DNA of 64,000 nucleotides from a virus. Its lineage: Duplodnaviria; Caudoviricetes. Shown here in pieces: positions 3,895-59,260 of the stretch; positions within the stretch are counted from its first letter, which is position 1; every line of letters starts with the position of its first letter. The stretch is taken from the IMG/VR virus record IMGVR_UViG_3300008255_000007, positions 20,153-84,152 of that record; one strand, 5' to 3'. The notes under the pieces were generated by a model. It searched no databases and had not been told where the DNA came from. It saw nothing but the letters and a program-made list of their open reading frames with translations. The position numbers were made by a program, and so were the translations under genes.

Positions 3895-3924
3895 TTGACA
3901 CATTTTACTTTTGTACATTATAAT
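3895..3924 (+). promoter_or_regulatory. sigma70-type promoter, leaderless HNH mRNA
   Basis: TTGACA-18-TATAAT, then 6 nt, then ATG at 3931. Confidence 0.8.
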
Positions 3925-3930
3925 AATATT

Positions 3931-4560
3931 ATGAAAAAGAAAACACTAACATTAGAGCACAGAAAAGCACTTAGCGAAGCTGCTAAGATATCAAATTCTA
4001 CTAGAGTCTTATCTGAAGAAACTTTAAAGAAGATGAGCGACTCTGCTAAGAAAAGAGAAGCTGCCAAAGAAGATAAAACTCTACCAGAAGGTATGATTAA
4101 ACGTAAAGAGCATATATGGCTAAAAGATATAGAGTGTAAAGAGTGCTCTAAGTGTAAAGGAGTTAAACCTTTAACTGAATTTGGAAAAGATAAAAGTGCT
4201 AAATGGGATGGACTAAACTACTACTGTAAAGTATGCCATAATCAGAATAGGAAAAAAGCATATAAAACTACTAAAAAATATGAAAATAAATATGCAGTTA
4301 ATAGAAGAAGACAGTTAAAAATAGAAGCTGTAGAATATAAAGGTGGGATATGTCAAAAGTGTGGATTAAAACATGAAACTAATCATAATACCGCCGCTTT
4401 CCAGTTCCACCATAGAGACCCCTCTAAGAAAGACTTTACTATAGCAGCGAGGACTACTACGGTATTAGACAATTTAAAACCAGAATTAGATAAATGCGAC
4501 TTATTATGTGCCACATGTCATCATATAGTCCACTGGAGCCTTAAAAAAGACCTAGACTAA
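3931..4560 (+). CDS. free-standing HNH homing endonuclease with NUMOD3-like N-terminus
   Basis: Repeats EHRKALSEA and EETLKKMSDS, CxxC zinc motifs, FHHRDP...KCDLLCATCH. Start moved to ATG 3931 from the promoter geometry. Confidence 0.85.
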   Translation: MKKKTLTLEHRKALSEAAKISNSTRVLSEETLKKMSDSAKKREAAKEDKTLPEGMIKRKEHIWLKDIECKECSKCKGVKPLTEFGKDKSAKWDGLNYYCKVCHNQNRKKAYKTTKKYENKYAVNRRRQLKIEAVEYKGGICQKCGLKHETNHNTAAFQFHHRDPSKKDFTIAARTTTVLDNLKPELDKCDLLCATCHHIVHWSLKKDLD

Positions 4561-4721: not shown

Positions 4722-4741
4722 CTTCTTAAACAACTCCTTAT

Positions 4742-5140
4742 ATGGAATCTAAAAAATACTTTATATTTAATAAGGGCGAGAAATTTAAGTTATCTGATAA
4801 TTTCAGTAGTCATGAACTAGAATGCAAATGTTCTAGAGCTGATTGCATAGAACAGAAGATATCCGTAAATTTAATAGAAAAACTACAGAAAATAAGAGAA
4901 AAGTTAGGTAAGTCTTTAAAGATTACCAGCGGTTATAGGTGCGAAGCCCATAACAAAGCTATAGGAGGTGCTGCTAAAAGTCAGCACATTCTAGGAAACG
5001 CCGTAGACCTTAAAACAGAGGATATGGACTCTCTAGAAGCTTTAGTAGAAGTTGAATTTGATGCTGTAGGTAATGCCAAGCCTTCCTTCTTACATGTAGA
5101 TGTAAGAGATACTAAAAACAAACTAAGATGGACCTATTAA
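4742..5140 (+). CDS. peptidase M15A-type endolysin (Zn peptidoglycan peptidase)
   Basis: ITSGYRC..HN..IGGA..SQH..G.AVD and FLHVDVR motifs. Confidence 0.85.
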   Translation: MESKKYFIFNKGEKFKLSDNFSSHELECKCSRADCIEQKISVNLIEKLQKIREKLGKSLKITSGYRCEAHNKAIGGAAKSQHILGNAVDLKTEDMDSLEALVEVEFDAVGNAKPSFLHVDVRDTKNKLRWTY

Positions 5141-8848: not shown

Positions 8849-9017
8849 ATGATGCGTGACGGCGTATCTCACTTGGTCCAGTGTTTAGGCTCATCGGTTA
8901 GTCGGATACAGACTAAGGCTTTACATAGATTGAGCCAGATCAATCTGTAGTTTGTAGATCTAAAATGCTACATGGCGCAGCTAGAGTCATCAACTCTTGA
9001 CGAAGAGTCTGCTTTTT
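8849..9017 (+). ncRNA. candidate structured RNA or leader upstream of the thioredoxin gene (contains a 33-codon ORF)
   Basis: GC-richer than the flanks, several hairpins, terminal ACTCTT-GACG-AAGAGT hairpin followed by CTGCTTTTT. Confidence 0.45.
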
Positions 9018-10910: not shown

Positions 10911-11541
10911 CGAGTTTTAAGTACTTAGCTAAGTTATCAATCTTAGTGTATAACTCTTCTAAGGTTCCTTTATTGTCTATAGCATAATCGAAATTAAAAT
11001 TATCTAAATCTCTTTCAGAAGGATCAGTAGTGTCTACGGTAGTGAACCTATTAATTCTTAGAGTATGTATTGGTTTATTAGCTAGTCTACTAAGACTAGA
11101 GTATTCAGATTTATATCTAAAATCACTAATTACCACTTTATCTAGTTTATTACATTGAGAGCTTACTCTGTTAACCCAGTAATTAGTATCAACTGCTCTA
11201 TTAACGCTACCTTTTAAGATGCATAAGGCTCTAGGAGTGAAGTAGAAATCAGAGTTTCCTGTAGAGGCTATAGTAGAACCATCTAGACGTTTAACCTCAT
11301 GCTTTAGTAAGTCATGTATCTTTTTTGAAAATGAGTCAAAAGCTTTAACAGGATATTGAAGAAGAGGAGCCTCTTTTAAGTCTCTATCATCTAGCCATTC
11401 TCTAGGAATATTATACTCATCAGCTACCATGTCTTTTAGGACGCCAGCAAAGGATAGTTGATTAAAACCATAGACTTCTTTTAGATGAGCAGCCACAGTA
11501 TCTTTTCCTGAATTCTTCCAAGCGCTAATTAGTAAAATCAT
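10903..11541 (-). CDS. deoxynucleoside monophosphate kinase
   Basis: P-loop variant SAWKNSGKDT, SFAGVLK, VVISDFRY..E, DHxSE-like DPSERDLD. Confidence 0.85.
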   Translation of the reverse strand: MILLISAWKNSGKDTVAAHLKEVYGFNQLSFAGVLKDMVADEYNIPREWLDDRDLKEAPLLQYPVKAFDSFSKKIHDLLKHEVKRLDGSTIASTGNSDFYFTPRALCILKGSVNRAVDTNYWVNRVSSQCNKLDKVVISDFRYKSEYSSLSRLANKPIHTLRINRFTTVDTTDPSERDLDNFNFDYAIDNKGTLEELYTKIDNLAKYLKLDV

Positions 11542-11548
11542 AGAATTT

Positions 11549-11577
11549 ATTATAACAAATAAAATTGAAAGTGTAAA
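11549..11577 (-). promoter_or_regulatory. sigma70-type promoter, leaderless dNMP kinase mRNA
   Basis: TTTACA-17-TATAAT, then 7 nt, then ATG at 11541. Confidence 0.75.
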
Positions 11578-28970: not shown

Positions 28971-29357
28971 TCATTTTGATGCTTGATTAACAGAGTAAGT
29001 AAGGCCTACTGTAATAAGTGCTCCTAATCCAAAATACATTAAGTTTTCCCAGAAGTTCCTACTATCTCTAGAGGCTACTTCTTTAGCTAGATCGGTAGAA
29101 TGGTTTTTCCATAAAACTACTTGTTCATCTAAAAGCTTTTGTTGCTTCTGTGATACCTCAAGACGTTTATTAGTAATCTCAGACAACTCTTTATAGTAGT
29201 CTAAATCGATCAATTTAAACCTAGTTTCTTTTTCTTTTTCAGGAGTAAACAAGTATCCAGTATATGGAGCAGGTTCTCCTTTTTCTATATATCTAACTTG
29301 AGCTACTGAGACAAAGCTAAATGTCAATAAAGTAACTAGTGTAAAGATTCTATACAT
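28971..29357 (-). CDS. exported protein with signal peptide, coiled coil and C-terminal TM
   Basis: MYRIFTLVTLLTFSFVSVA|Q; ends LMYFGLGALITVGLTYSV. Confidence 0.6.
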   Translation of the reverse strand: MYRIFTLVTLLTFSFVSVAQVRYIEKGEPAPYTGYLFTPEKEKETRFKLIDLDYYKELSEITNKRLEVSQKQQKLLDEQVVLWKNHSTDLAKEVASRDSRNFWENLMYFGLGALITVGLTYSVNQASK

Positions 29358-29363
29358 ATGTAC

Positions 29364-29393
29364 ATTATAGCATACCTCTGTCTAAAGTGTAAA
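29364..29393 (-). promoter_or_regulatory. sigma70-type promoter, leaderless
   Basis: TTTACA-18-(TGc)TATAAT, then 6 nt, then ATG at 29357. Confidence 0.75.
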
Positions 29394-29406
29394 CAACTAA
29401 AAGTAT

Positions 29407-29937
29407 ATGTCTCATACAAATAATAGCAAGTTAGATTTTCAACAGATCATAAAGGCTGTATTTGATAGCGATAAACATAGGCTTAGGACTGATGGTATCG
29501 TCTCTTTTGAAGGCGGCGAGCAAGAAATAATTATAAGCCATCTTGATGATTCTATTAGATTAGGGGATGGGACTAACTTTCTAACCTCTACTAATATAGG
29601 AGCAGACTACGGATTAGATGTTAATATCATCGGAGGTTCTTTAACTTCTAGCGATGGAGGTCTAATTGGTGGCTTAGCCAATTCTGCAGTAAATATAACA
29701 GATACTCCCACTAAAATACCAGTAAGTGCTTTAACTGATAGACATTCTATTAGTATTAGAAATTGGGGGACTAGTAATATTTATTTTGGTACTAGCTCCG
29801 TAAGTACTTCTAATGGTTATCCAAAAAGACCTTATGAGGAATTTGTACTAAGAGCCGGAGATGCTGCAGCTACTGAAATATACGCAGTATGCGAATCTGG
29901 AGAGAGTTCTCAAGTAAGAGTAATTGAGATTGCTTAA
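29407..29937 (+). CDS. virion decoration-type protein (SKLDFQQIIK family)
   Basis: N-motif shared with 11844; C-terminal DRHSISIRNWG..IYFG...SNGYP domain. Confidence 0.55.
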   Translation: MSHTNNSKLDFQQIIKAVFDSDKHRLRTDGIVSFEGGEQEIIISHLDDSIRLGDGTNFLTSTNIGADYGLDVNIIGGSLTSSDGGLIGGLANSAVNITDTPTKIPVSALTDRHSISIRNWGTSNIYFGTSSVSTSNGYPKRPYEEFVLRAGDAAATEIYAVCESGESSQVRVIEIA

Positions 29938-43157: not shown

Positions 43158-43804
43158 TGATCCTCCTCAAAAATAAACAACTCATTGAATTTTCTAAGAT
43201 GTTCTTCAAGTCCTATATTCTTAAAGCATACATTACCACTAGTTACTTTGTCAATACCATTTTCTACTCCTACAGCTATAGCGATAGCTAGAGCATCTGT
43301 CATGTCATGAGGAGTAGCTCTGGCCTTTCCGGTAATATTAGATAGGATAGTCTCAGGAACCTTCATATAAGCTTCCACAGCCTCTCTAGTGGGCTGTTTA
43401 TAGTCGCGCTTACCGTTAGCATAGCTGGGCTTAATGCCAAGCACGCGCCTCCAGGAGGGCGGAGGGACCTCTTGCATAGGCACTAGGGTAGGATGCGTAC
43501 ACCTCATTTCCAGTAAGTGGTTGATAGTAGGTACTACCGCTACTCCCATACGTAGTTTAGGATTCATAAAATAAGCTTCAGTAAAGACTTGAGCAGGGAC
43601 TGGAACTATTCCATTTATTAAGTATTCAAATGCATAATGCATATATATTAACTTCTTGCCTTTAGACCAGTTAGGTTTAGTCCAGAGCATACCTGCATGA
43701 TGAATATAAAGTTCTTTATTATCTATCTCAGCTAGAGCATAGGCTAGGTGAGCTGAAGAAGGATCTATAGCAAGAAATGGAACATTTTGAGGTAACTCTA
43801 ACAT
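43154..43804 (-). CDS. RuvC-like Holliday junction resolvase
   Basis: LAIDP, FTE, P.SWR..LG, HD..DALAIA. Confidence 0.75.
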   Translation of the reverse strand: MLELPQNVPFLAIDPSSAHLAYALAEIDNKELYIHHAGMLWTKPNWSKGKKLIYMHYAFEYLINGIVPVPAQVFTEAYFMNPKLRMGVAVVPTINHLLEMRCTHPTLVPMQEVPPPSWRRVLGIKPSYANGKRDYKQPTREAVEAYMKVPETILSNITGKARATPHDMTDALAIAIAVGVENGIDKVTSGNVCFKNIGLEEHLRKFNELFIFEEDQ

Positions 43805-43810
43805 TACCTT

Positions 43811-43840
43811 AGTATATCAGAAATAGCGGGCCGCTGTCAA
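43811..43840 (-). promoter_or_regulatory. sigma70-type promoter, leaderless, with a GC palindrome in the spacer
   Basis: TTGACA-18-(TGa)TATACT, then 6 nt, then ATG at 43804; AGCGG-G-CCGCT at 43825-43835. Confidence 0.8.
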
Positions 43841-46031: not shown

Positions 46032-47009
46032 TTACTCAGACAGTAACTCACCGTCTTCATTAAGGATTGCTACTGATCCCCACTGATCCTTGTTAGCATT
46101 CTTGTAGTCATCAATAGCTGCTTTATCATTAGGTATGATAGCATCAGCAGTTATGACAAACTCTCCAGTATTGGATGAGTTAGTTACGTGGTTTTTTTCT
46201 ACTATAATCTTAGATACTATTCCGAATTGAATAGACTTGCTATCTTTAGTAGCTGATAGTTTTTTAGATTTACTAAACTTAAGAACTAAACTAGAAGAAT
46301 AATAAATACCCTCTCCTCCGTAATATTTTAAAGTAGTAGGTCCTCCAGGAAAAGCAGGGGGCTTATCGTAGGCATGGTTTATAAAAACTAATCCTGCATA
46401 TTTAGGACTTATTAATTTCCTAGTATCGTCTATTCTATGTTGAATAACTCTCATATTTTCTCTAATGACTCTTGAAGCTTTCATCATGGCTCCTCCAAGT
46501 TCAAGCTCTCCTGTCTTTTTATTAAGCTTAATAGAATCTTTACTTATAGAATTGCCTATAGAGTCTACAAAGAACATAATATCTAAAGGAAGGTCCCCAT
46601 TGCTATGCATATTAAGGTAGTCAATTATAACTTTAAACACGTCCTCTAAATATTCTGCATATTCTACTATACAGAGTTCTTCTTCATTTCGTTGATCTTC
46701 TGGTAAGTCTCCAGTATATTGTAATCCCATAGATCTAGCCCTATCCCAAGATACTTTACCTTCTGTAATAATAAAGATAGGGAGTATTCCTTGTTTTTGG
46801 CACTCAGCAGCAGCATGAAAAGCTAATGTGGTTTTTCCAGTATCACTTCTTCCATAAAGTTGAGTAGTTCTTCCTAGAGGAAGACCAGGCATACCTAATA
46901 CAGGCTTTAAAGCTTCTGCTAAATTAACAAACTTTTCTTTTTTAACTTCATTAATTTCAGACTTTCTTTTCTTTTTTATATCTGATAGTTTAAATTTCTT
47001 ACTTGTCAT
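46032..47009 (-). CDS. recA: RecA/UvsX-like recombinase
   Basis: G.P.GR..QLYGRSDTGKT, VDSIG, FINH, GG..YYSS..L.F, V.KN; start ATG 47009. Confidence 0.85.
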   Translation of the reverse strand: MTSKKFKLSDIKKKRKSEINEVKKEKFVNLAEALKPVLGMPGLPLGRTTQLYGRSDTGKTTLAFHAAAECQKQGILPIFIITEGKVSWDRARSMGLQYTGDLPEDQRNEEELCIVEYAEYLEDVFKVIIDYLNMHSNGDLPLDIMFFVDSIGNSISKDSIKLNKKTGELELGGAMMKASRVIRENMRVIQHRIDDTRKLISPKYAGLVFINHAYDKPPAFPGGPTTLKYYGGEGIYYSSSLVLKFSKSKKLSATKDSKSIQFGIVSKIIVEKNHVTNSSNTGEFVITADAIIPNDKAAIDDYKNANKDQWGSVAILNEDGELLSE

Positions 47010-47045
47010 ATGAGGAGTATATACTTTATAATAATTAAATGTCAA
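47003..47045. promoter_or_regulatory. interlocked divergent leaderless promoters
   Basis: + strand: TTGTCA-18-TATAAT-6-ATG 47039. - strand: TTGACA-18-TATACT-6-ATG 47009. Confidence 0.85.
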
Positions 47046-48142
47046 ACAGATTATCACACAGTCAAGTAAACACTTTTATGACCTGCGGTCAAAAGTATAA
47101 ATATCATTATATAGATAAGCTCAGAGAGAAGGTTACTTCATCGGCTCTTTTATTCGGATCAGCTATAGATGAGGCTTTAAATTCAGCACTTATAGCTAAG
47201 AGAGAAGGCACCCTGACTGACGATTGGACTCCCTATCTTGCTAAATTTGAAGAGTTCTGGACTAATGGCTTCATTAACAAGAAAAAAGAAAGTCTACTTA
47301 ATAATGAAAAACTAGTGTATGCACAGGCCGATATGGATTGGGACCTCCTTACTGATTTTGAATTACAAGAACTTACCACTCTAGGAAAAGGTGATCCTAA
47401 AGATAAATTTAAAGCTATAGCTCAACAGAAATCAGAAAAAGGCTGGCTTAACTTACAACCAACACAAAGGCAGTTTTATAACTATTGTAACTGGCTATCC
47501 CTTAGACATAAAGGTAAACATATGTTAGAGGCTTACAGGGTTAATATAATACCTAGAATAAAACAGGTATTAGAAGTCCAGATGAAGCTTGACTTTGATA
47601 ATGAAGAAGGTGACAGCATTCTAGGATACTTAGACTGCGTAGTAGTATGGGAAGACGATACTATATTAGTAGTTGACAATAAAACATCAGCTAGAGATTA
47701 TGAACTAGACTCTGTTAGAACCAGTCCCCAGTTAGGTTTATATAAAACCTTTATGAGAGAAGTGTACGGAGATAATATAAAGGCCGCGTTTTTCGTAATA
47801 AAAAAAGCTATGGCTAAGAATAAAAAGAAGATATGTGATACTTGTAATCATGATGGGAGCGGATCAAGAGCAAGAAGCTGTGATAATACTATAAATGGTA
47901 AAAGGTGTCCAGGACAGTGGATAACTACAGTAGACGCTAAGGCTGAAGTACAAGTAATAATAGATGACATTCCAGATAGAGTAGAGACAATGATTGTAGA
48001 AAACTTTGACAGTGTAAACAAACTAATCAATACTGGAATCTTTACTAAGAACTTTAATTCTTGTAAAGGTAAATTTGGTTTATGTCCTTACTATAATCTT
48101 TGTTGGAATGACTCAAAAGAAGGCCTTGACACTGTCGAGTAA
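47039..48142 (+). CDS. PD-(D/E)XK exonuclease, Cas4/RecB-like
   Basis: RLSHS..F.TC, GYLD..VVDNKT, QLGLY, C..FGLCPY..LC. Confidence 0.85.
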   Translation: MSNRLSHSQVNTFMTCGQKYKYHYIDKLREKVTSSALLFGSAIDEALNSALIAKREGTLTDDWTPYLAKFEEFWTNGFINKKKESLLNNEKLVYAQADMDWDLLTDFELQELTTLGKGDPKDKFKAIAQQKSEKGWLNLQPTQRQFYNYCNWLSLRHKGKHMLEAYRVNIIPRIKQVLEVQMKLDFDNEEGDSILGYLDCVVVWEDDTILVVDNKTSARDYELDSVRTSPQLGLYKTFMREVYGDNIKAAFFVIKKAMAKNKKKICDTCNHDGSGSRARSCDNTINGKRCPGQWITTVDAKAEVQVIIDDIPDRVETMIVENFDSVNKLINTGIFTKNFNSCKGKFGLCPYYNLCWNDSKEGLDTVE

Positions 48143-48155
48143 CTAATGATAGGAT
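48126..48155 (+). promoter_or_regulatory. sigma70-type promoter
   Basis: TTGACA-18-(TGa)TAGGAT, then 6 nt, then ATG at 48162. Confidence 0.7.
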
Positions 48156-48161
48156 GCATAT

Positions 48162-48203
48162 ATGTTTAATAGTAAGTTAAAAAACATGAAGGATGCGAGG
48201 TAG
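48162..48203 (+). CDS. putative 13-aa leaderless upstream ORF (MFNSKLKNMKDAR)
   Basis: ATG sits exactly at the predicted +1. Confidence 0.35.
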   Translation: MFNSKLKNMKDAR

Positions 48204-48210
48204 AGAAGAA

Positions 48211-48513
48211 ATGCCAAAAGTCAAAATCGGTGAAGAAAAAAGAAAAGAATTAGGAATTCTAAATGAAGAAGGAGTTAAAGTGAAAGAACCAAAATTAAAC
48301 CCACTAGCAGACGTTGGAATGTATCTAGGTATTGAGTCTAGACCTGAAGGATACGTAATTGTATCTCTTTCAGTGGATGGAGACACAGTAGCTAAAAAAG
48401 ATGAGTATAAAGCTGATTTCTCTAAAGGAAGAGCTTTAGAGGCATTTAAACTAGCCAGCGGTAAATTTATCGTAGGCTTTAATAGTAAAGCTAAACAGCT
48501 TAAGAAAGGATAA
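48211..48513 (+). CDS. hypothetical protein
   Basis: Purine-rich SD-like tract before ATG 48211. Confidence 0.6.
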   Translation: MPKVKIGEEKRKELGILNEEGVKVKEPKLNPLADVGMYLGIESRPEGYVIVSLSVDGDTVAKKDEYKADFSKGRALEAFKLASGKFIVGFNSKAKQLKKG

Positions 48514-51731: not shown

Positions 51732-53897
51732 ATGCTTTGGAATAAGAATAAGTCTATAAAGATTATCACTACTACCGAAGAACTAAAGGAATTAGAAGCT
51801 AAGTATTTAGCCGCTGAATATATAGCATTTGATACTGAGACTACAGGCCTTGGAAGATTTGATGAATTTGTTGGTATTGGTTTTGCTCTTAGCGAAGATG
51901 AAGCCATATACATACCTTATAAGATATACGATTTAGCATCAAAGAGTTTAAAGTATCCTTGGACGCTAGAAGCTATAGATTATATAGACGCTTGGATAGA
52001 AAAACAGTTAACTCATAAAAAAAGATTAATCTGTCATAACGCTAGCTTTGACTGTAAAGCAGTAGATAATACTTTATGCTTTGATCCTATCGATTATATA
52101 TACGCAGATACTGGTTTACTACACCATACCGTAATTGACGAAGAACCTCCACATGGTCTTAAGAACTTGTCTATTAAATTTCTAGACGAAAGTGCCGCTA
52201 ATCCTCAAGAGGACCTTAAAGAGTCTGTAAAAGTAATGGGCGGTATATGGAAGGCTGCAGATAAAGAGTTCTACAAAGGAGCGTATACTATACTAGGAAG
52301 ATACTGCTGCTATGATGTTCTCTATACCTTTGGGCTATTTAATAGATTCATGCCTAGAGTAGAAGAGGAACAGATGCAGGATTTATGGGAGAACGAAGTA
52401 ATGGCTTTGCTTCCAGTAACCCACGAGCTTAATATGACTGGTATTAGAATAGATGTTGAGTACTTCAAACAGCTCAAAGAAGAAATGGAATCTAATATTA
52501 AAAACATGGAAGCTATAATCTTCTCAGAGATAGAAGAGCATATAGTAGATTATGAAGTACAGGCCGTATTAGATAAGTACAAAGTATCCTCTAGAAGTAG
52601 TCTCGGCAAGTATCTCTTCTCTAGAGGCTATAAAGGAAATGAACCAGAGCTAGTTAATTTTAGAGATGACATTATACAGTGGTATAAGACCAGTAAAAAT
52701 CAAGAGAGAGTAATGAACTTAGACTCTAATAAAGATAAAGCTTTTATACTCTTTGATATATTACAACTACCTTGCTACGAGAACACTGCTACAGGGGGTA
52801 GAAAAGTAACGGCAGCCATACTAAAAAGACTAGAAGAAGAGTACGCAGAGTCTAGCGAGATACTAAAGATATTAATGGATCGATCTAAAGAAAAGAAACT
52901 TCTTACTACATACGTAGTTCCTTTTATTGAAAAGAACATTGATGGTAGGATGTACCCCTCTTTCAATCAATCAGGTACTACTAGCGGAAGATATTCATCT
53001 AACTCTCCAAACTTCCAAAACATTCCGGCTAGGGATAATAGAATTAAAAAAGGCATAGTATCAGATGATGGTTATGTATTTGTAAATGCTGACTATTCAT
53101 CGCTAGAACCTCGAAGTTTTGCGAGTGTTAGCTCTGAAACTAGTATTAAGAAAGTTTATACAGATGGTCTAGATTTCTACTCTAGTGTTTACTTAACAGT
53201 AATGGGAGACTCTAGTTTATCTGCTGATCCAGAAGCTCCTAACTATTTAGGACTCGTAGATAAACAATTAAGGCAAGATACTAAAGCTTGGGCATTAGGG
53301 CTAGCTTATGGAATGAGTGAGTTTAAACTGGCTAAGGTTTTAAATAAAGATATTGAAGAAACTAAGGAACTGAAAGATAAGTATTTCAAAGCCTTTCCTA
53401 ACCTACTTAAATACCATAAGACTTGTGAAGCTAGTATTAGAACTAAAGGCTACGTTACCTCTATTGCTGGTAGAAGAAGGCGCGCTAAGCTTGTGCCCGA
53501 ACTTCATCGTAGAGGGTATGATCCTTTTGATAGAAAAAGTGTATATAGGGCCTATAGTAAAGGTGCTTTTAATAATTACGAAACTAATAAGAAACTAATG
53601 TCGGCGGTAGGGAATGAAATTAATAACAGTTATAACTTTGGTATCCAGTCTTTGGCTGCTTCAGTGGTTAATGCAGCGGCCATAAAAGTAAAAAAGCTAA
53701 TAAAAGATAATGACTTAGACTGTAGATTAGTACTACAAGTACATGATGAGTTGACTTTGATCTGTAAAGAATCAGAGGCTGATAAAGCCTCAGAGCTTTT
53801 AAGAGAGGCTATGGAGAACAATAGAATTACAGACAAGATTGACGTTAAAATGATAGCACAGCCTTTAATAGCAAAAAGGTTGTCTGAAGCTAAATAG
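51732..53897 (+). CDS. polA: family A DNA polymerase with 3'-5' exonuclease
   Basis: FDTETTG, HNASFD, YCCYD, TTSGRYSS..PNFQNIP, ADYSSLEPR, K...LG..YG, QVHDEL. Confidence 0.95.
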   Translation: MLWNKNKSIKIITTTEELKELEAKYLAAEYIAFDTETTGLGRFDEFVGIGFALSEDEAIYIPYKIYDLASKSLKYPWTLEAIDYIDAWIEKQLTHKKRLICHNASFDCKAVDNTLCFDPIDYIYADTGLLHHTVIDEEPPHGLKNLSIKFLDESAANPQEDLKESVKVMGGIWKAADKEFYKGAYTILGRYCCYDVLYTFGLFNRFMPRVEEEQMQDLWENEVMALLPVTHELNMTGIRIDVEYFKQLKEEMESNIKNMEAIIFSEIEEHIVDYEVQAVLDKYKVSSRSSLGKYLFSRGYKGNEPELVNFRDDIIQWYKTSKNQERVMNLDSNKDKAFILFDILQLPCYENTATGGRKVTAAILKRLEEEYAESSEILKILMDRSKEKKLLTTYVVPFIEKNIDGRMYPSFNQSGTTSGRYSSNSPNFQNIPARDNRIKKGIVSDDGYVFVNADYSSLEPRSFASVSSETSIKKVYTDGLDFYSSVYLTVMGDSSLSADPEAPNYLGLVDKQLRQDTKAWALGLAYGMSEFKLAKVLNKDIEETKELKDKYFKAFPNLLKYHKTCEASIRTKGYVTSIAGRRRRAKLVPELHRRGYDPFDRKSVYRAYSKGAFNNYETNKKLMSAVGNEINNSYNFGIQSLAASVVNAAAIKVKKLIKDNDLDCRLVLQVHDELTLICKESEADKASELLREAMENNRITDKIDVKMIAQPLIAKRLSEAK

Positions 53898-53908
53898 TAA
53901 GGTATAAT
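53880..53908 (+). promoter_or_regulatory. sigma70-type promoter, leaderless
   Basis: TTGTCT-17-TATAAT, then 6 nt, then ATG at 53915. Confidence 0.7.
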
Positions 53909-53914
53909 ATAATA

Positions 53915-54925
53915 ATGACTCGACTGATTAATCTTAAAGTATATTGTCCTAATCCATCAGATATTACAAGTCTTTACAGAGCAGTAGGACCTCTCTCAGC
54001 GCTAAGAAAGCAGTATAGAAACTTACAGATTGATTTCGAGGCTAAGCTAGAATATCAAAGTATTGCTATGGCTGATATTGTGTTTCTTCAGAGACCTTTC
54101 GTAGATGCTCATTTAAATGTAGCCAAGGTAGCTAAAGAGCATGGTATCCCTGTGTGGGCTGATTGGGACGATAACTTGTTTGCTATACCTGAAACTAATC
54201 CTCATTATAAAAGCTATGCTAGTCCTAAGTTAGCAGAGAACATTAAACAAGTAGCTGCTCTAGCTGATATAGTTACTGTACCTACTGAACCATTAAAAGG
54301 TATAATGAGTAAATTTAGTAATAAGGTTAGGGTTATTCCTAATGCTCTATTTGATGAGTTACTAGATGAAAGTAGAATCAGCTATGATAAGAGGCGAGCG
54401 GTCATTGGTTGGAGAGGTGGACAAAGCCATAACATGGATCTTATGGATGCTAGAGATCCTATCATTAACATCTCTCATAAACATAAGAACTGGGCTTTTG
54501 TATTTGTAGGATACAATCCTTTTATTCAAATGAAAGGAATTAGAGATGGGGCTATGGGACATTTTCCTAACATGAGCTTTAAAGACTATATGAAAAACTT
54601 AAAAAGTATAGCAGCTCCGGTTCATATAGTACCTCTAGTTAATGACTCTTTTAACGTATGCAAAAGCAACATAGCTTGGCTTGAAGCCTCTACCGCTGGT
54701 AGTCTTGTAATAGCTCCAGATATGCCAGAATGGAAGAGACCAGGAATTATTAACTATAGCTCTAATAAAGAATTAGAAGAACAGATGGAGCGAGTTATTA
54801 AGTCTCCGTCTTTAGTCAAGACTAAAAATAAAGAAAGCTTAAAATACATCAAAGATAATCTATTGCTTTCTAAGATAAATAAAGATAGAATTACTTTAAT
54901 TGAGGAGTTAGATGATGTCAGATGA
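53915..54925 (+). CDS. glycosyltransferase, GT-B (GT4-like)
   Basis: YR...P, VFLQR, DWDDNLF, AD.VTV.T..L, VIPNAL, IGWRGG.SH, PL...FN.CKSN...LE.S.AG. Confidence 0.85.
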   Translation: MTRLINLKVYCPNPSDITSLYRAVGPLSALRKQYRNLQIDFEAKLEYQSIAMADIVFLQRPFVDAHLNVAKVAKEHGIPVWADWDDNLFAIPETNPHYKSYASPKLAENIKQVAALADIVTVPTEPLKGIMSKFSNKVRVIPNALFDELLDESRISYDKRRAVIGWRGGQSHNMDLMDARDPIINISHKHKNWAFVFVGYNPFIQMKGIRDGAMGHFPNMSFKDYMKNLKSIAAPVHIVPLVNDSFNVCKSNIAWLEASTAGSLVIAPDMPEWKRPGIINYSSNKELEEQMERVIKSPSLVKTKNKESLKYIKDNLLLSKINKDRITLIEELDDVR

Positions 54926-58963: not shown

Positions 58964-58978
58964 AACAACTTTTTATAT

Positions 58979-59260
58979 ATGAATAACCCTGGGAAGCTAA
59001 TAGAGTGCCAAGATGACCAAGAGTTACTCGATTTCCTCCTTACCTATCTTACAGATAGTGCTTATACTGCCATTGTACTAAATGAGTACCCAGACGGTCA
59101 AGTCTTAAGTGATTCTGAAATTGACTTTAATATATCAATAGCACTAAGCCAGGGCTTTATACCAGTAATATGTTATAGGCTTACAGAGAAGCATTATTAC
59201 GCTTTTGGACAGGCTACAGGCCTTACAGCTCTAATCCCTGTTGACATAATCAATCATTAG
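58979..59260 (+). CDS. hypothetical protein (lone + strand gene)
   Basis: Fills the gap exactly, preceded by AACAACT. Confidence 0.55.
   Translation: MNNPGKLIECQDDQELLDFLLTYLTDSAYTAIVLNEYPDGQVLSDSEIDFNISIALSQGFIPVICYRLTEKHYYAFGQATGLTALIPVDIINH

Follow-up and report, generated by a model that had tools for sequence, protein, structure and literature searches.

The analysis of the junction between a RecA/UvsX-like recombinase gene and a divergent PD-(D/E)XK nuclease gene in an uncultured phage outlined two putative sigma-70-type promoters, arranged back-to-back within 43 bp, in which each -35 box falls within the first codons of the partner gene. The reading that best accounts for these features, and that we consider probably correct, is that two genuine promoters, of the type recognised by the housekeeping sigma factor of the host, overlap at this site, that neither mRNA would carry a leader, and that polymerases would time-share the site occupied by the two promoters.

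The window analysed here (64,000 nucleotides) corresponds to positions 20153-84152 of a viral genome from IMG/VR that is complete at 84,152 bp and bears direct terminal repeats; all positions below refer to this window. DNA from this phage, which has a G+C content of ~36%, is present in aquifer metagenomes. A DNA-level search with the phage genome returned no match among GenBank phages, and the best GenBank phage match to its family-A DNA polymerase (PolA) is only 28% identical. Among 5.8 billion proteins, the nearest to the recombinase is 59% identical and the nearest to the nuclease 45% identical. A search for the host, based on a profile scan of 185,579 species genomes, yielded only two distant archaeal RadA-like matches. 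The junction constitutes the strand-switch point between two DNA-metabolism gene blocks. The leftward arm encodes the RecA/UvsX-like recombinase, an SbcD/Mre11-like exonuclease, ClpP and a RuvC-like resolvase, and also contains RNA ligase genes; the rightward arm encodes the PD-(D/E)XK nuclease, Erf, a primase-helicase and PolA. No sigma-70-family domain was found in a search of the phage, and the host holoenzyme is therefore the likely reader of its promoters. A search of the phage for a single-subunit RNA polymerase (PF00940) also returned no match, in a scan whose control responded nowhere either.

The rightward promoter, on the + strand, comprises a TTGTCA -35 box (47003-47008; 5/6 consensus bases) that lies inside codons 1-3 of the recombinase, on the opposite strand, and a TATAAT -10 box (47027-47032; 6/6) located 6 nt before ATG 47039. 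The leftward promoter, on the - strand, comprises a TTGACA -35 box (47040-47045; 6/6), which, read on the other strand, corresponds to the TG of the nuclease ATG, the second codon of that gene (TCA) and the first base of codon 3, and a TATACT -10 box (47016-47021; 5/6) located 6 nt before ATG 47009. The two boxes are separated by 18 nt in both promoters, 1 bp more than is optimal in E. coli. Near-TTGACA and near-TATAAT hexamers, the latter with A at position 2 and T at position 6, are hence present on both strands at a spacing within the 16-19 bp range of sigma-70-type promoters. The whole 29-bp intergenic region (47010-47038) consists only of the two -10 boxes, the 5-bp gap between them and two 6-bp discriminators, with no untranslated leader on either side. 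The recombinase starts with ATG-ACA-A and the nuclease with ATG-TCA-A, and the first seven coding bases of each gene, read on the opposite strand, spell the -35 box of the partner plus the T that follows it. The coordinates, boxes, spacers and 29-bp gap given in the first-pass annotation, which had described two divergent promoters with each -35 box overlapping the start codon of the other gene, were correct to the base, and this description stands as the best reading of the sequence.

The position of the true start codons is critical here, as two gene models place them elsewhere. The recombinase gene (46032-47009, - strand) encodes a 325-aa protein matching Pfam PF00154 and PHROG 97, and the nuclease gene (47039-48142, + strand) a Cys-rich, Cas4/AddB-like protein of 367 aa matching Pfam PF12705 and PHROG exonuclease entries; neither gene is preceded by a Shine-Dalgarno motif. 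Alignments of the N-terminal regions with 29 and 30 homologues identified both annotated ATG codons as the true starts. Recombinase family members begin with M-[S/T]-K-K-F, which places the start at ATG 47009, and nuclease family members with M-x-x-[K/R]-L-S-H-S, which places it at ATG 47039. The longer recombinase frame in the list of open reading frames, starting at GTG-47057, is incorrect according to the homologue N-termini. Likewise, the model of the nuclease available in the protein collection (P0121, 354 aa) starts 13 codons late and drops the conserved N-terminal L-S-H-S (47039-47078), a mis-call arising because the true start lacks a ribosome-binding site.

The nuclease alignment also revealed an invariant N-terminal cysteine (C16) and three invariant C-terminal cysteines (C342, C349 and C355), as in the iron-sulfur nucleases of the Cas4/AddB type. 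A second invariant cluster of four cysteines (C266, C269, C281 and C290) in this family has the appearance of an inserted zinc ribbon.

To score putative promoters, we counted matches to the sigma-70 -35 and -10 hexamers out of 12, using a consensus that may differ from that of the host. Both junction sites score 11/12 and are the top two sigma-70-like matches in the 14-kb neighbourhood. The DNA upstream of either gene is exclusively coding sequence of the partner, and no alternative promoter scoring at least 10/12 was found facing either gene within 300 bp. A score of at least 11/12 is reached by nine sites in the whole window, where first-order Markov sequences give 3.4 +/- 1.7, and six of these nine stand 6-7 nt before an ATG opening a long open reading frame. 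All six of these ATGs are taken as real gene starts, the two at the junction being confirmed by homologues.

With a -10 box spanning positions -12 to -7, the seventh base downstream of it would be +1, and in both junction genes this base is the A of the ATG (47039 and 47009). We hence infer that transcription starts on the first base of each start codon and that both mRNAs would be leaderless. The two genes present the further hallmarks expected of leaderless transcripts, namely an AUG start at the true N-terminus of the protein and the lack of a Shine-Dalgarno motif.

The genome-wide distribution of -35/-10 pairs indicates that this arrangement is not restricted to the junction. Across the whole genome, such pairs peak 6-7 nt before the ATG of long open reading frames, with seven cases at 6 nt and two at 7 nt; these nine cases compare with a background of ~0.54 per distance bin (Poisson p = 2e-6). 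The geometry is also specific for ATG. It was observed before 10 of 529 ATG triplets and before only 8 of 5,248 instances of eleven other triplets (Fisher p = 8e-7), a ~12-fold preference, and before none of 92 GTG triplets. All ten module ATGs are located at gene starts, two of them confirmed by homologues and the others being the first in-frame ATG of called genes. Furthermore, eight of the ten module genes lack a Shine-Dalgarno-like motif, compared with 45 of 118 other genes (p = 0.016), and the two exceptions correspond to AAGG strings within the promoter itself. In window coordinates, the module gene starts identified in a relaxed search are -11767, 3931, 11541, 29357, 31350, 37462, 43804, 47009, 47039 and 53915; the same search detected one more module before a 33-codon open reading frame at 8849.

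Several of these sister modules closely resemble those at the junction. The RuvC-like gene is preceded by TTGACA-18-TATACT-6-ATG (43802-43840, - strand), a layout identical to that of the junction, which would constitute an internal promoter of the left arm. A 12/12 module, TTGACA-18-TATAAT-6-ATG (3895-3933, + strand), precedes an HNH endonuclease gene, and a TTGTCT-17-TATAAT-6-ATG module (53880-53917, + strand) would act as an internal promoter of the right arm. On the - strand, TTTACA-18-TATAAT-6-ATG (29355-29393) is located at another divergent junction, and TTTACA-17-TATAAT-7-ATG occurs at 11539-11577. Other phage genes present clear GGAG-type sites, and the sigma-70-like promoters at the left end are followed by Shine-Dalgarno-bearing leaders of ~20 nt. 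There are, on this sequence evidence, two kinds of gene start in the phage, and the junction would correspond to two leaderless modules placed head to head. Predicted folding of module mRNA 5' ends showed only a weak trend towards less structure (mean MFE of -2.1 versus -3.8 kcal/mol for other genes, p = 0.056), and the probability of the AUG being unpaired was no different between module genes and other genes.

Two other sequence features were noted in the vicinity of these modules. The otherwise AT-rich 18-bp spacer of the RuvC-side sister promoter (43811-43840) contains a GC-rich palindrome, GCGGCCCGC, which could be a regulator site. In addition, the motif AACAACT is found 6-8 nt before the ATG of three genes devoid of Shine-Dalgarno motifs, at 4742, 29407 and 58979 (4729-4744, 29392-29409 and 58964-58981), and the pattern AACAAMT with an ATG 4-12 nt further on was counted seven times, against 2.6 expected. 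A second, non-sigma-70 promoter-like motif may hence also directly precede start codons in this phage. The AACAACT instance at 29388-29398 shares bases with the -35 box of the leaderless module that faces leftward at that locus, which would make it a second interlocked junction of a different kind.

Leaderless starts are known from lambda cI, transcribed from PRM, and from many actinobacterial genes. Natural leaderless mRNAs begin with AUG (PMC3616915), and the ATG-specificity of the phage module agrees with this published rule. In Deinococcus, there are well-documented cases of transcription starting precisely at the start codon, after an upstream -10 box (PMC4007540).

A simpler alternative is that only one or neither of the junction motif pairs functions as a promoter, the matches being look-alikes of AT-rich DNA, with transcription arriving from elsewhere and translation initiating on short, A/U-rich leaders without Shine-Dalgarno motifs. 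Low-stringency promoter matches in the 14-kb neighbourhood are indeed at chance level (51 found versus 48 expected), about three window sites scoring at least 11/12 would be expected by chance, and the arrangement is not conserved in relatives. Against this, finding a pair of 11/12 sites within 43 bp, both precisely 6 nt away from validated ATG codons, far exceeds what chance predicts, and about eight further gene starts in the genome combine the module with the lack of a Shine-Dalgarno motif. In addition, the DNA upstream of either gene is coding sequence of the partner, with no competing promoter scoring at least 10/12 found within 300 bp. On balance, we regard this alternative as unlikely.

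In the preferred reading, two functional promoters compete for one site. Each promoter would fire outward, with its RNA beginning on the A of the ATG of its own gene. The interlock can be envisaged as a packing consequence of two standard phage modules, in each of which the -35 box begins 36 nt before the ATG. Given that the -35 consensus plus a T reads as ATG-TCA-A on the other strand, a pair of these modules could be pushed into one another until each -35 box sits on the first codons of the partner, and a single spacing would satisfy both sides because the two modules share the same 36-nt distance.

In bacterial promoters, sigma region 4 binds the -35 element as duplex DNA, the transcription bubble extends from about -11 to +2 and the polymerase protects approximately -55 to +20. 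The predicted start sites at the junction are 30 bp apart, and each -35 box occupies positions +2 to +7 of the partner transcript. The predicted footprints extend over ~46984-47058 for the rightward promoter and ~46990-47064 for the leftward one, overlapping in ~69 of 75 bp (~92%). According to this geometry, two base pairs of each -35 box would be melted by the bubble of the partner, so that opening of either promoter would disrupt part of the -35 box of the other. Two polymerases are hence unlikely to be engaged at once if both promoters work, given the 30-bp distance between start sites and the ~92% overlap between footprints. With one polymerase engaged at a time, the two strong promoters would time-share the site, in a form of competition rather than a regulated switch. 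Steric competition between polymerases at close divergent start sites has been reported to appear only when the promoters are strong, as for instance after improvement of a -35 box (PMC12825309), and it would be expected at this junction because both promoters are near consensus. The first-pass annotation had proposed fully overlapping footprints and a mutually exclusive switch; exclusion is upheld by the predicted geometry, on the premise that both promoters are active, and the regulatory switch is not.

The notion of a switch, in which the interlocked pair would direct expression to either the leftward arm (RecA/ClpP) or the rightward arm (nuclease/replication), draws on the almost complete overlap of the footprints, with each promoter spanning the start site of the other, and on the even match between the two promoters, both at 11/12. 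It also has precedents in known switches built on overlapping divergent promoters, such as qseC/qseM and the C-proteins of restriction-modification systems (PMC8789080) or the Pc/Pr pair of pLS20 (PMC4207663). All these known cases, however, encode an autoregulating DNA-binding regulator at the junction and carry operators there, whereas the genes flanking this junction encode a recombinase and a nuclease. A search for operator-like repeats at the junction found no repeated motif, beyond one 10-bp palindrome and short repeats at chance level; a trans-acting factor may nonetheless act there. Furthermore, both arms encode DNA-metabolism functions that would be needed at the same time, and additional sigma-70-like promoters lie within the left arm (43840) as well as the right one (48126 and 53880), so that the pair cannot gate either arm. 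No feedback element is present, and there is thus no basis for bistability. With no regulator gene at the junction, no operator repeats found there and additional promoters on both arms, the proposed switch is not supported and appears quite improbable; it is more economical to suppose that two evenly matched promoters time-share the site.

Among these additional promoters, the one located directly after the nuclease gene (48126-48155, + strand) presents the sequence TTGACA-18-TAGGAT with an upstream TG, and would allow the Erf, primase-helicase and PolA genes to be transcribed without any contribution from the interlocked pair. It is followed, after 6 nt, by an ATG (48162) that opens a reading frame of only 13 codons, and the next gene, led by a Shine-Dalgarno motif, probably starts at ATG 48212 (48126-48215). 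This promoter may hence produce a leadered transcript or serve a tiny leaderless upstream open reading frame.

The 10-bp palindrome at the junction, AGTATATACT (47016-47025), is perfect, occurs as a single copy in the genome and includes the leftward -10 box. Its uniqueness would be compatible with a different main role for the junction, coupled to divergent transcription and with the promoters secondary to it, as either a transcription-activated replication origin or the binding site of a protein recognizing the palindrome. The location of the junction between recombination and replication modules, at the strand-switch point and at the minimum of the cumulative GC skew, is also in line with such a role. 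The skew minimum is nevertheless explained by the change in coding strand, and the -10 box itself largely accounts for the palindrome. In addition, searches at the junction for iterons, DnaA-box-like repeats and an extended AT-rich unwinding region beyond the 29 bp did not identify any of these elements. We consider a main role of this kind very unlikely.

The first-pass annotation had also proposed that the interlock constrains codon 2 of both proteins. The sequence bears this out to the extent that each gene contributes its codon 2 to the -35 box of its partner, and codon usage provides only a weak hint of constraint. Both genes use a minority synonymous codon at this position (TCA, 18% of Ser codons; ACA, 25% of Thr codons), and a change to the preferred codon would lower the -35 score of the partner by one match in both cases. 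The joint probability of both choices is ~0.045, for a single locus, and the minority codons should be seen as a hint, not as evidence. Protein positions 2-3 vary in the alignments of both families, and the protein-level cost of the codon-2 choice is therefore expected to be small. Contigs from four other aquifer samples, essentially identical and fragmentary, present no difference across 47003-47045 and hence provide no test of this constraint.

These elements can be assembled into a more ambitious proposal, in which the interlock would be a selected, regulator-free device. The shared polymerase site would fix the relative output of recombinase and nuclease, or anticorrelate their bursts, regardless of polymerase supply, and selection acting on the -35 box of the partner would maintain the TCA and ACA codons. 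The interlock would form part of a phage-wide leaderless programme, adapted to a host with ribosomes that prefer leaderless mRNAs, which might be a groundwater bacterium with a small genome. We put this forward as speculation that is unlikely as a whole.

The comparative analysis of related loci suggests that the interlock is not shared with relatives. A single-sequence scan of viral contigs for a conserved arrangement did not return any match, and a profile scan of viral contigs identified 50 related recombinase loci. Only in two of these (L008 and L009) is the nuclease adjacent and divergent to the recombinase, at a distance of ~330 bp, and the orthologous recombinase genes in the 50 loci mostly present ordinary Shine-Dalgarno leaders. 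Conservation of ATG(T/A)CAA starts in homologous loci, which had been suggested as a check on the interlocked arrangement, was examined with a negative outcome: the starts are not conserved. One relative (L012) does start with ATGACAA, which we attribute to chance; its gene has a Shine-Dalgarno motif and no divergent neighbour. A search with the strict module pattern in five complete relatives returned no matches, against three in this genome.

Upstream of the recombinase gene in one group of relatives (L016-L023), a TATAAT or TATACT box is found in the loop of a conserved GC-rich hairpin with a stem of ~8-10 bp. The hairpin is located ~30-60 nt before the recombinase start, near locus position 2940-2990, and ahead of the recombinase gene, which has its own ordinary GGAG site; it represents a putative promoter embedded in a hairpin.

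We also scanned for recurrence of the interlock itself, using an exact self-complementary 43-bp template with 18 specified bases. The scan identified 4 matches in viral contigs and 73 in metagenome contigs, which is at chance level. Only 4 of these 77 matches are flanked by open reading frames on both sides, and none of them scores above 21/24, compared with 22/24 for the locus described here. The interlock is hence apparently singular to this genome, and not a widespread design. The sole viral-contig match with open reading frames on both sides (87 and 142 aa) is located at L056:12012-12054, in a contig with 57% G+C, and has weak -10 boxes; it is a possible second example of interlock and could be due to chance.

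Comparison with known systems indicates that the junction combines known parts, overlapping divergent promoters and leaderless starts, in an extreme packing. Like qseC/qseM of ICEMlSymR7A, the C-protein controllers (PMC8789080) and Pc/Pr of pLS20 (PMC4207663), it presents outward sigma-70-type promoters with overlapping elements. In qseC/qseM, however, the two -35 regions overlap each other, whereas here each -35 box lies inside the first codons of the partner. Those three systems also pair a regulator gene with operators at the junction, neither of which is evident here. Moreover, only one transcript is leaderless in qseC and in several C-protein genes, whereas both would be in the phage.

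The junction also resembles the bidirectional promoters described by Warman, Forrest, Wade and Grainger (PMC12825309, PMC10268837), in that the start sites are too close for two polymerases. Those promoters have a shared or overlapping, pseudo-symmetric -10 region, with the divergent start sites flanking it or falling inside it, typically 18 bp apart (also 10 or 23). The junction was considered as a member of this class and rejected, given that 5 bp separate its two -10 boxes and that its start sites are 30 bp apart.

The individual modules are similar to the leaderless mRNAs of Deinococcus deserti (PMC4007540) and Sinorhizobium meliloti (PMC3616915), which have a -10 box 6-7 nt before the AUG, lack Shine-Dalgarno motifs and use AUG exclusively. 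The setting is nonetheless different, as the phage is low in G+C, its other genes and the orthologues in its relatives have strong GGAG-type sites, and the two modules at the junction are interdigitated. In the literature searched, we came across no description of a divergent gene pair in which both mRNAs lack a leader, which is not proof of absence.

From the standpoint of annotation, the late call of the nuclease start suggests that leaderless phage genes of this kind are likely to be systematically mis-called. If both promoters work, a divergent control region could hardly be more compact than this junction, with the first codons of each gene doubling as the -35 box of the other. The junction would also provide a natural test bed for regulator-free competition between two strong, evenly matched promoters, and for leaderless translation in a phage that also makes use of ordinary ribosome-binding sites.
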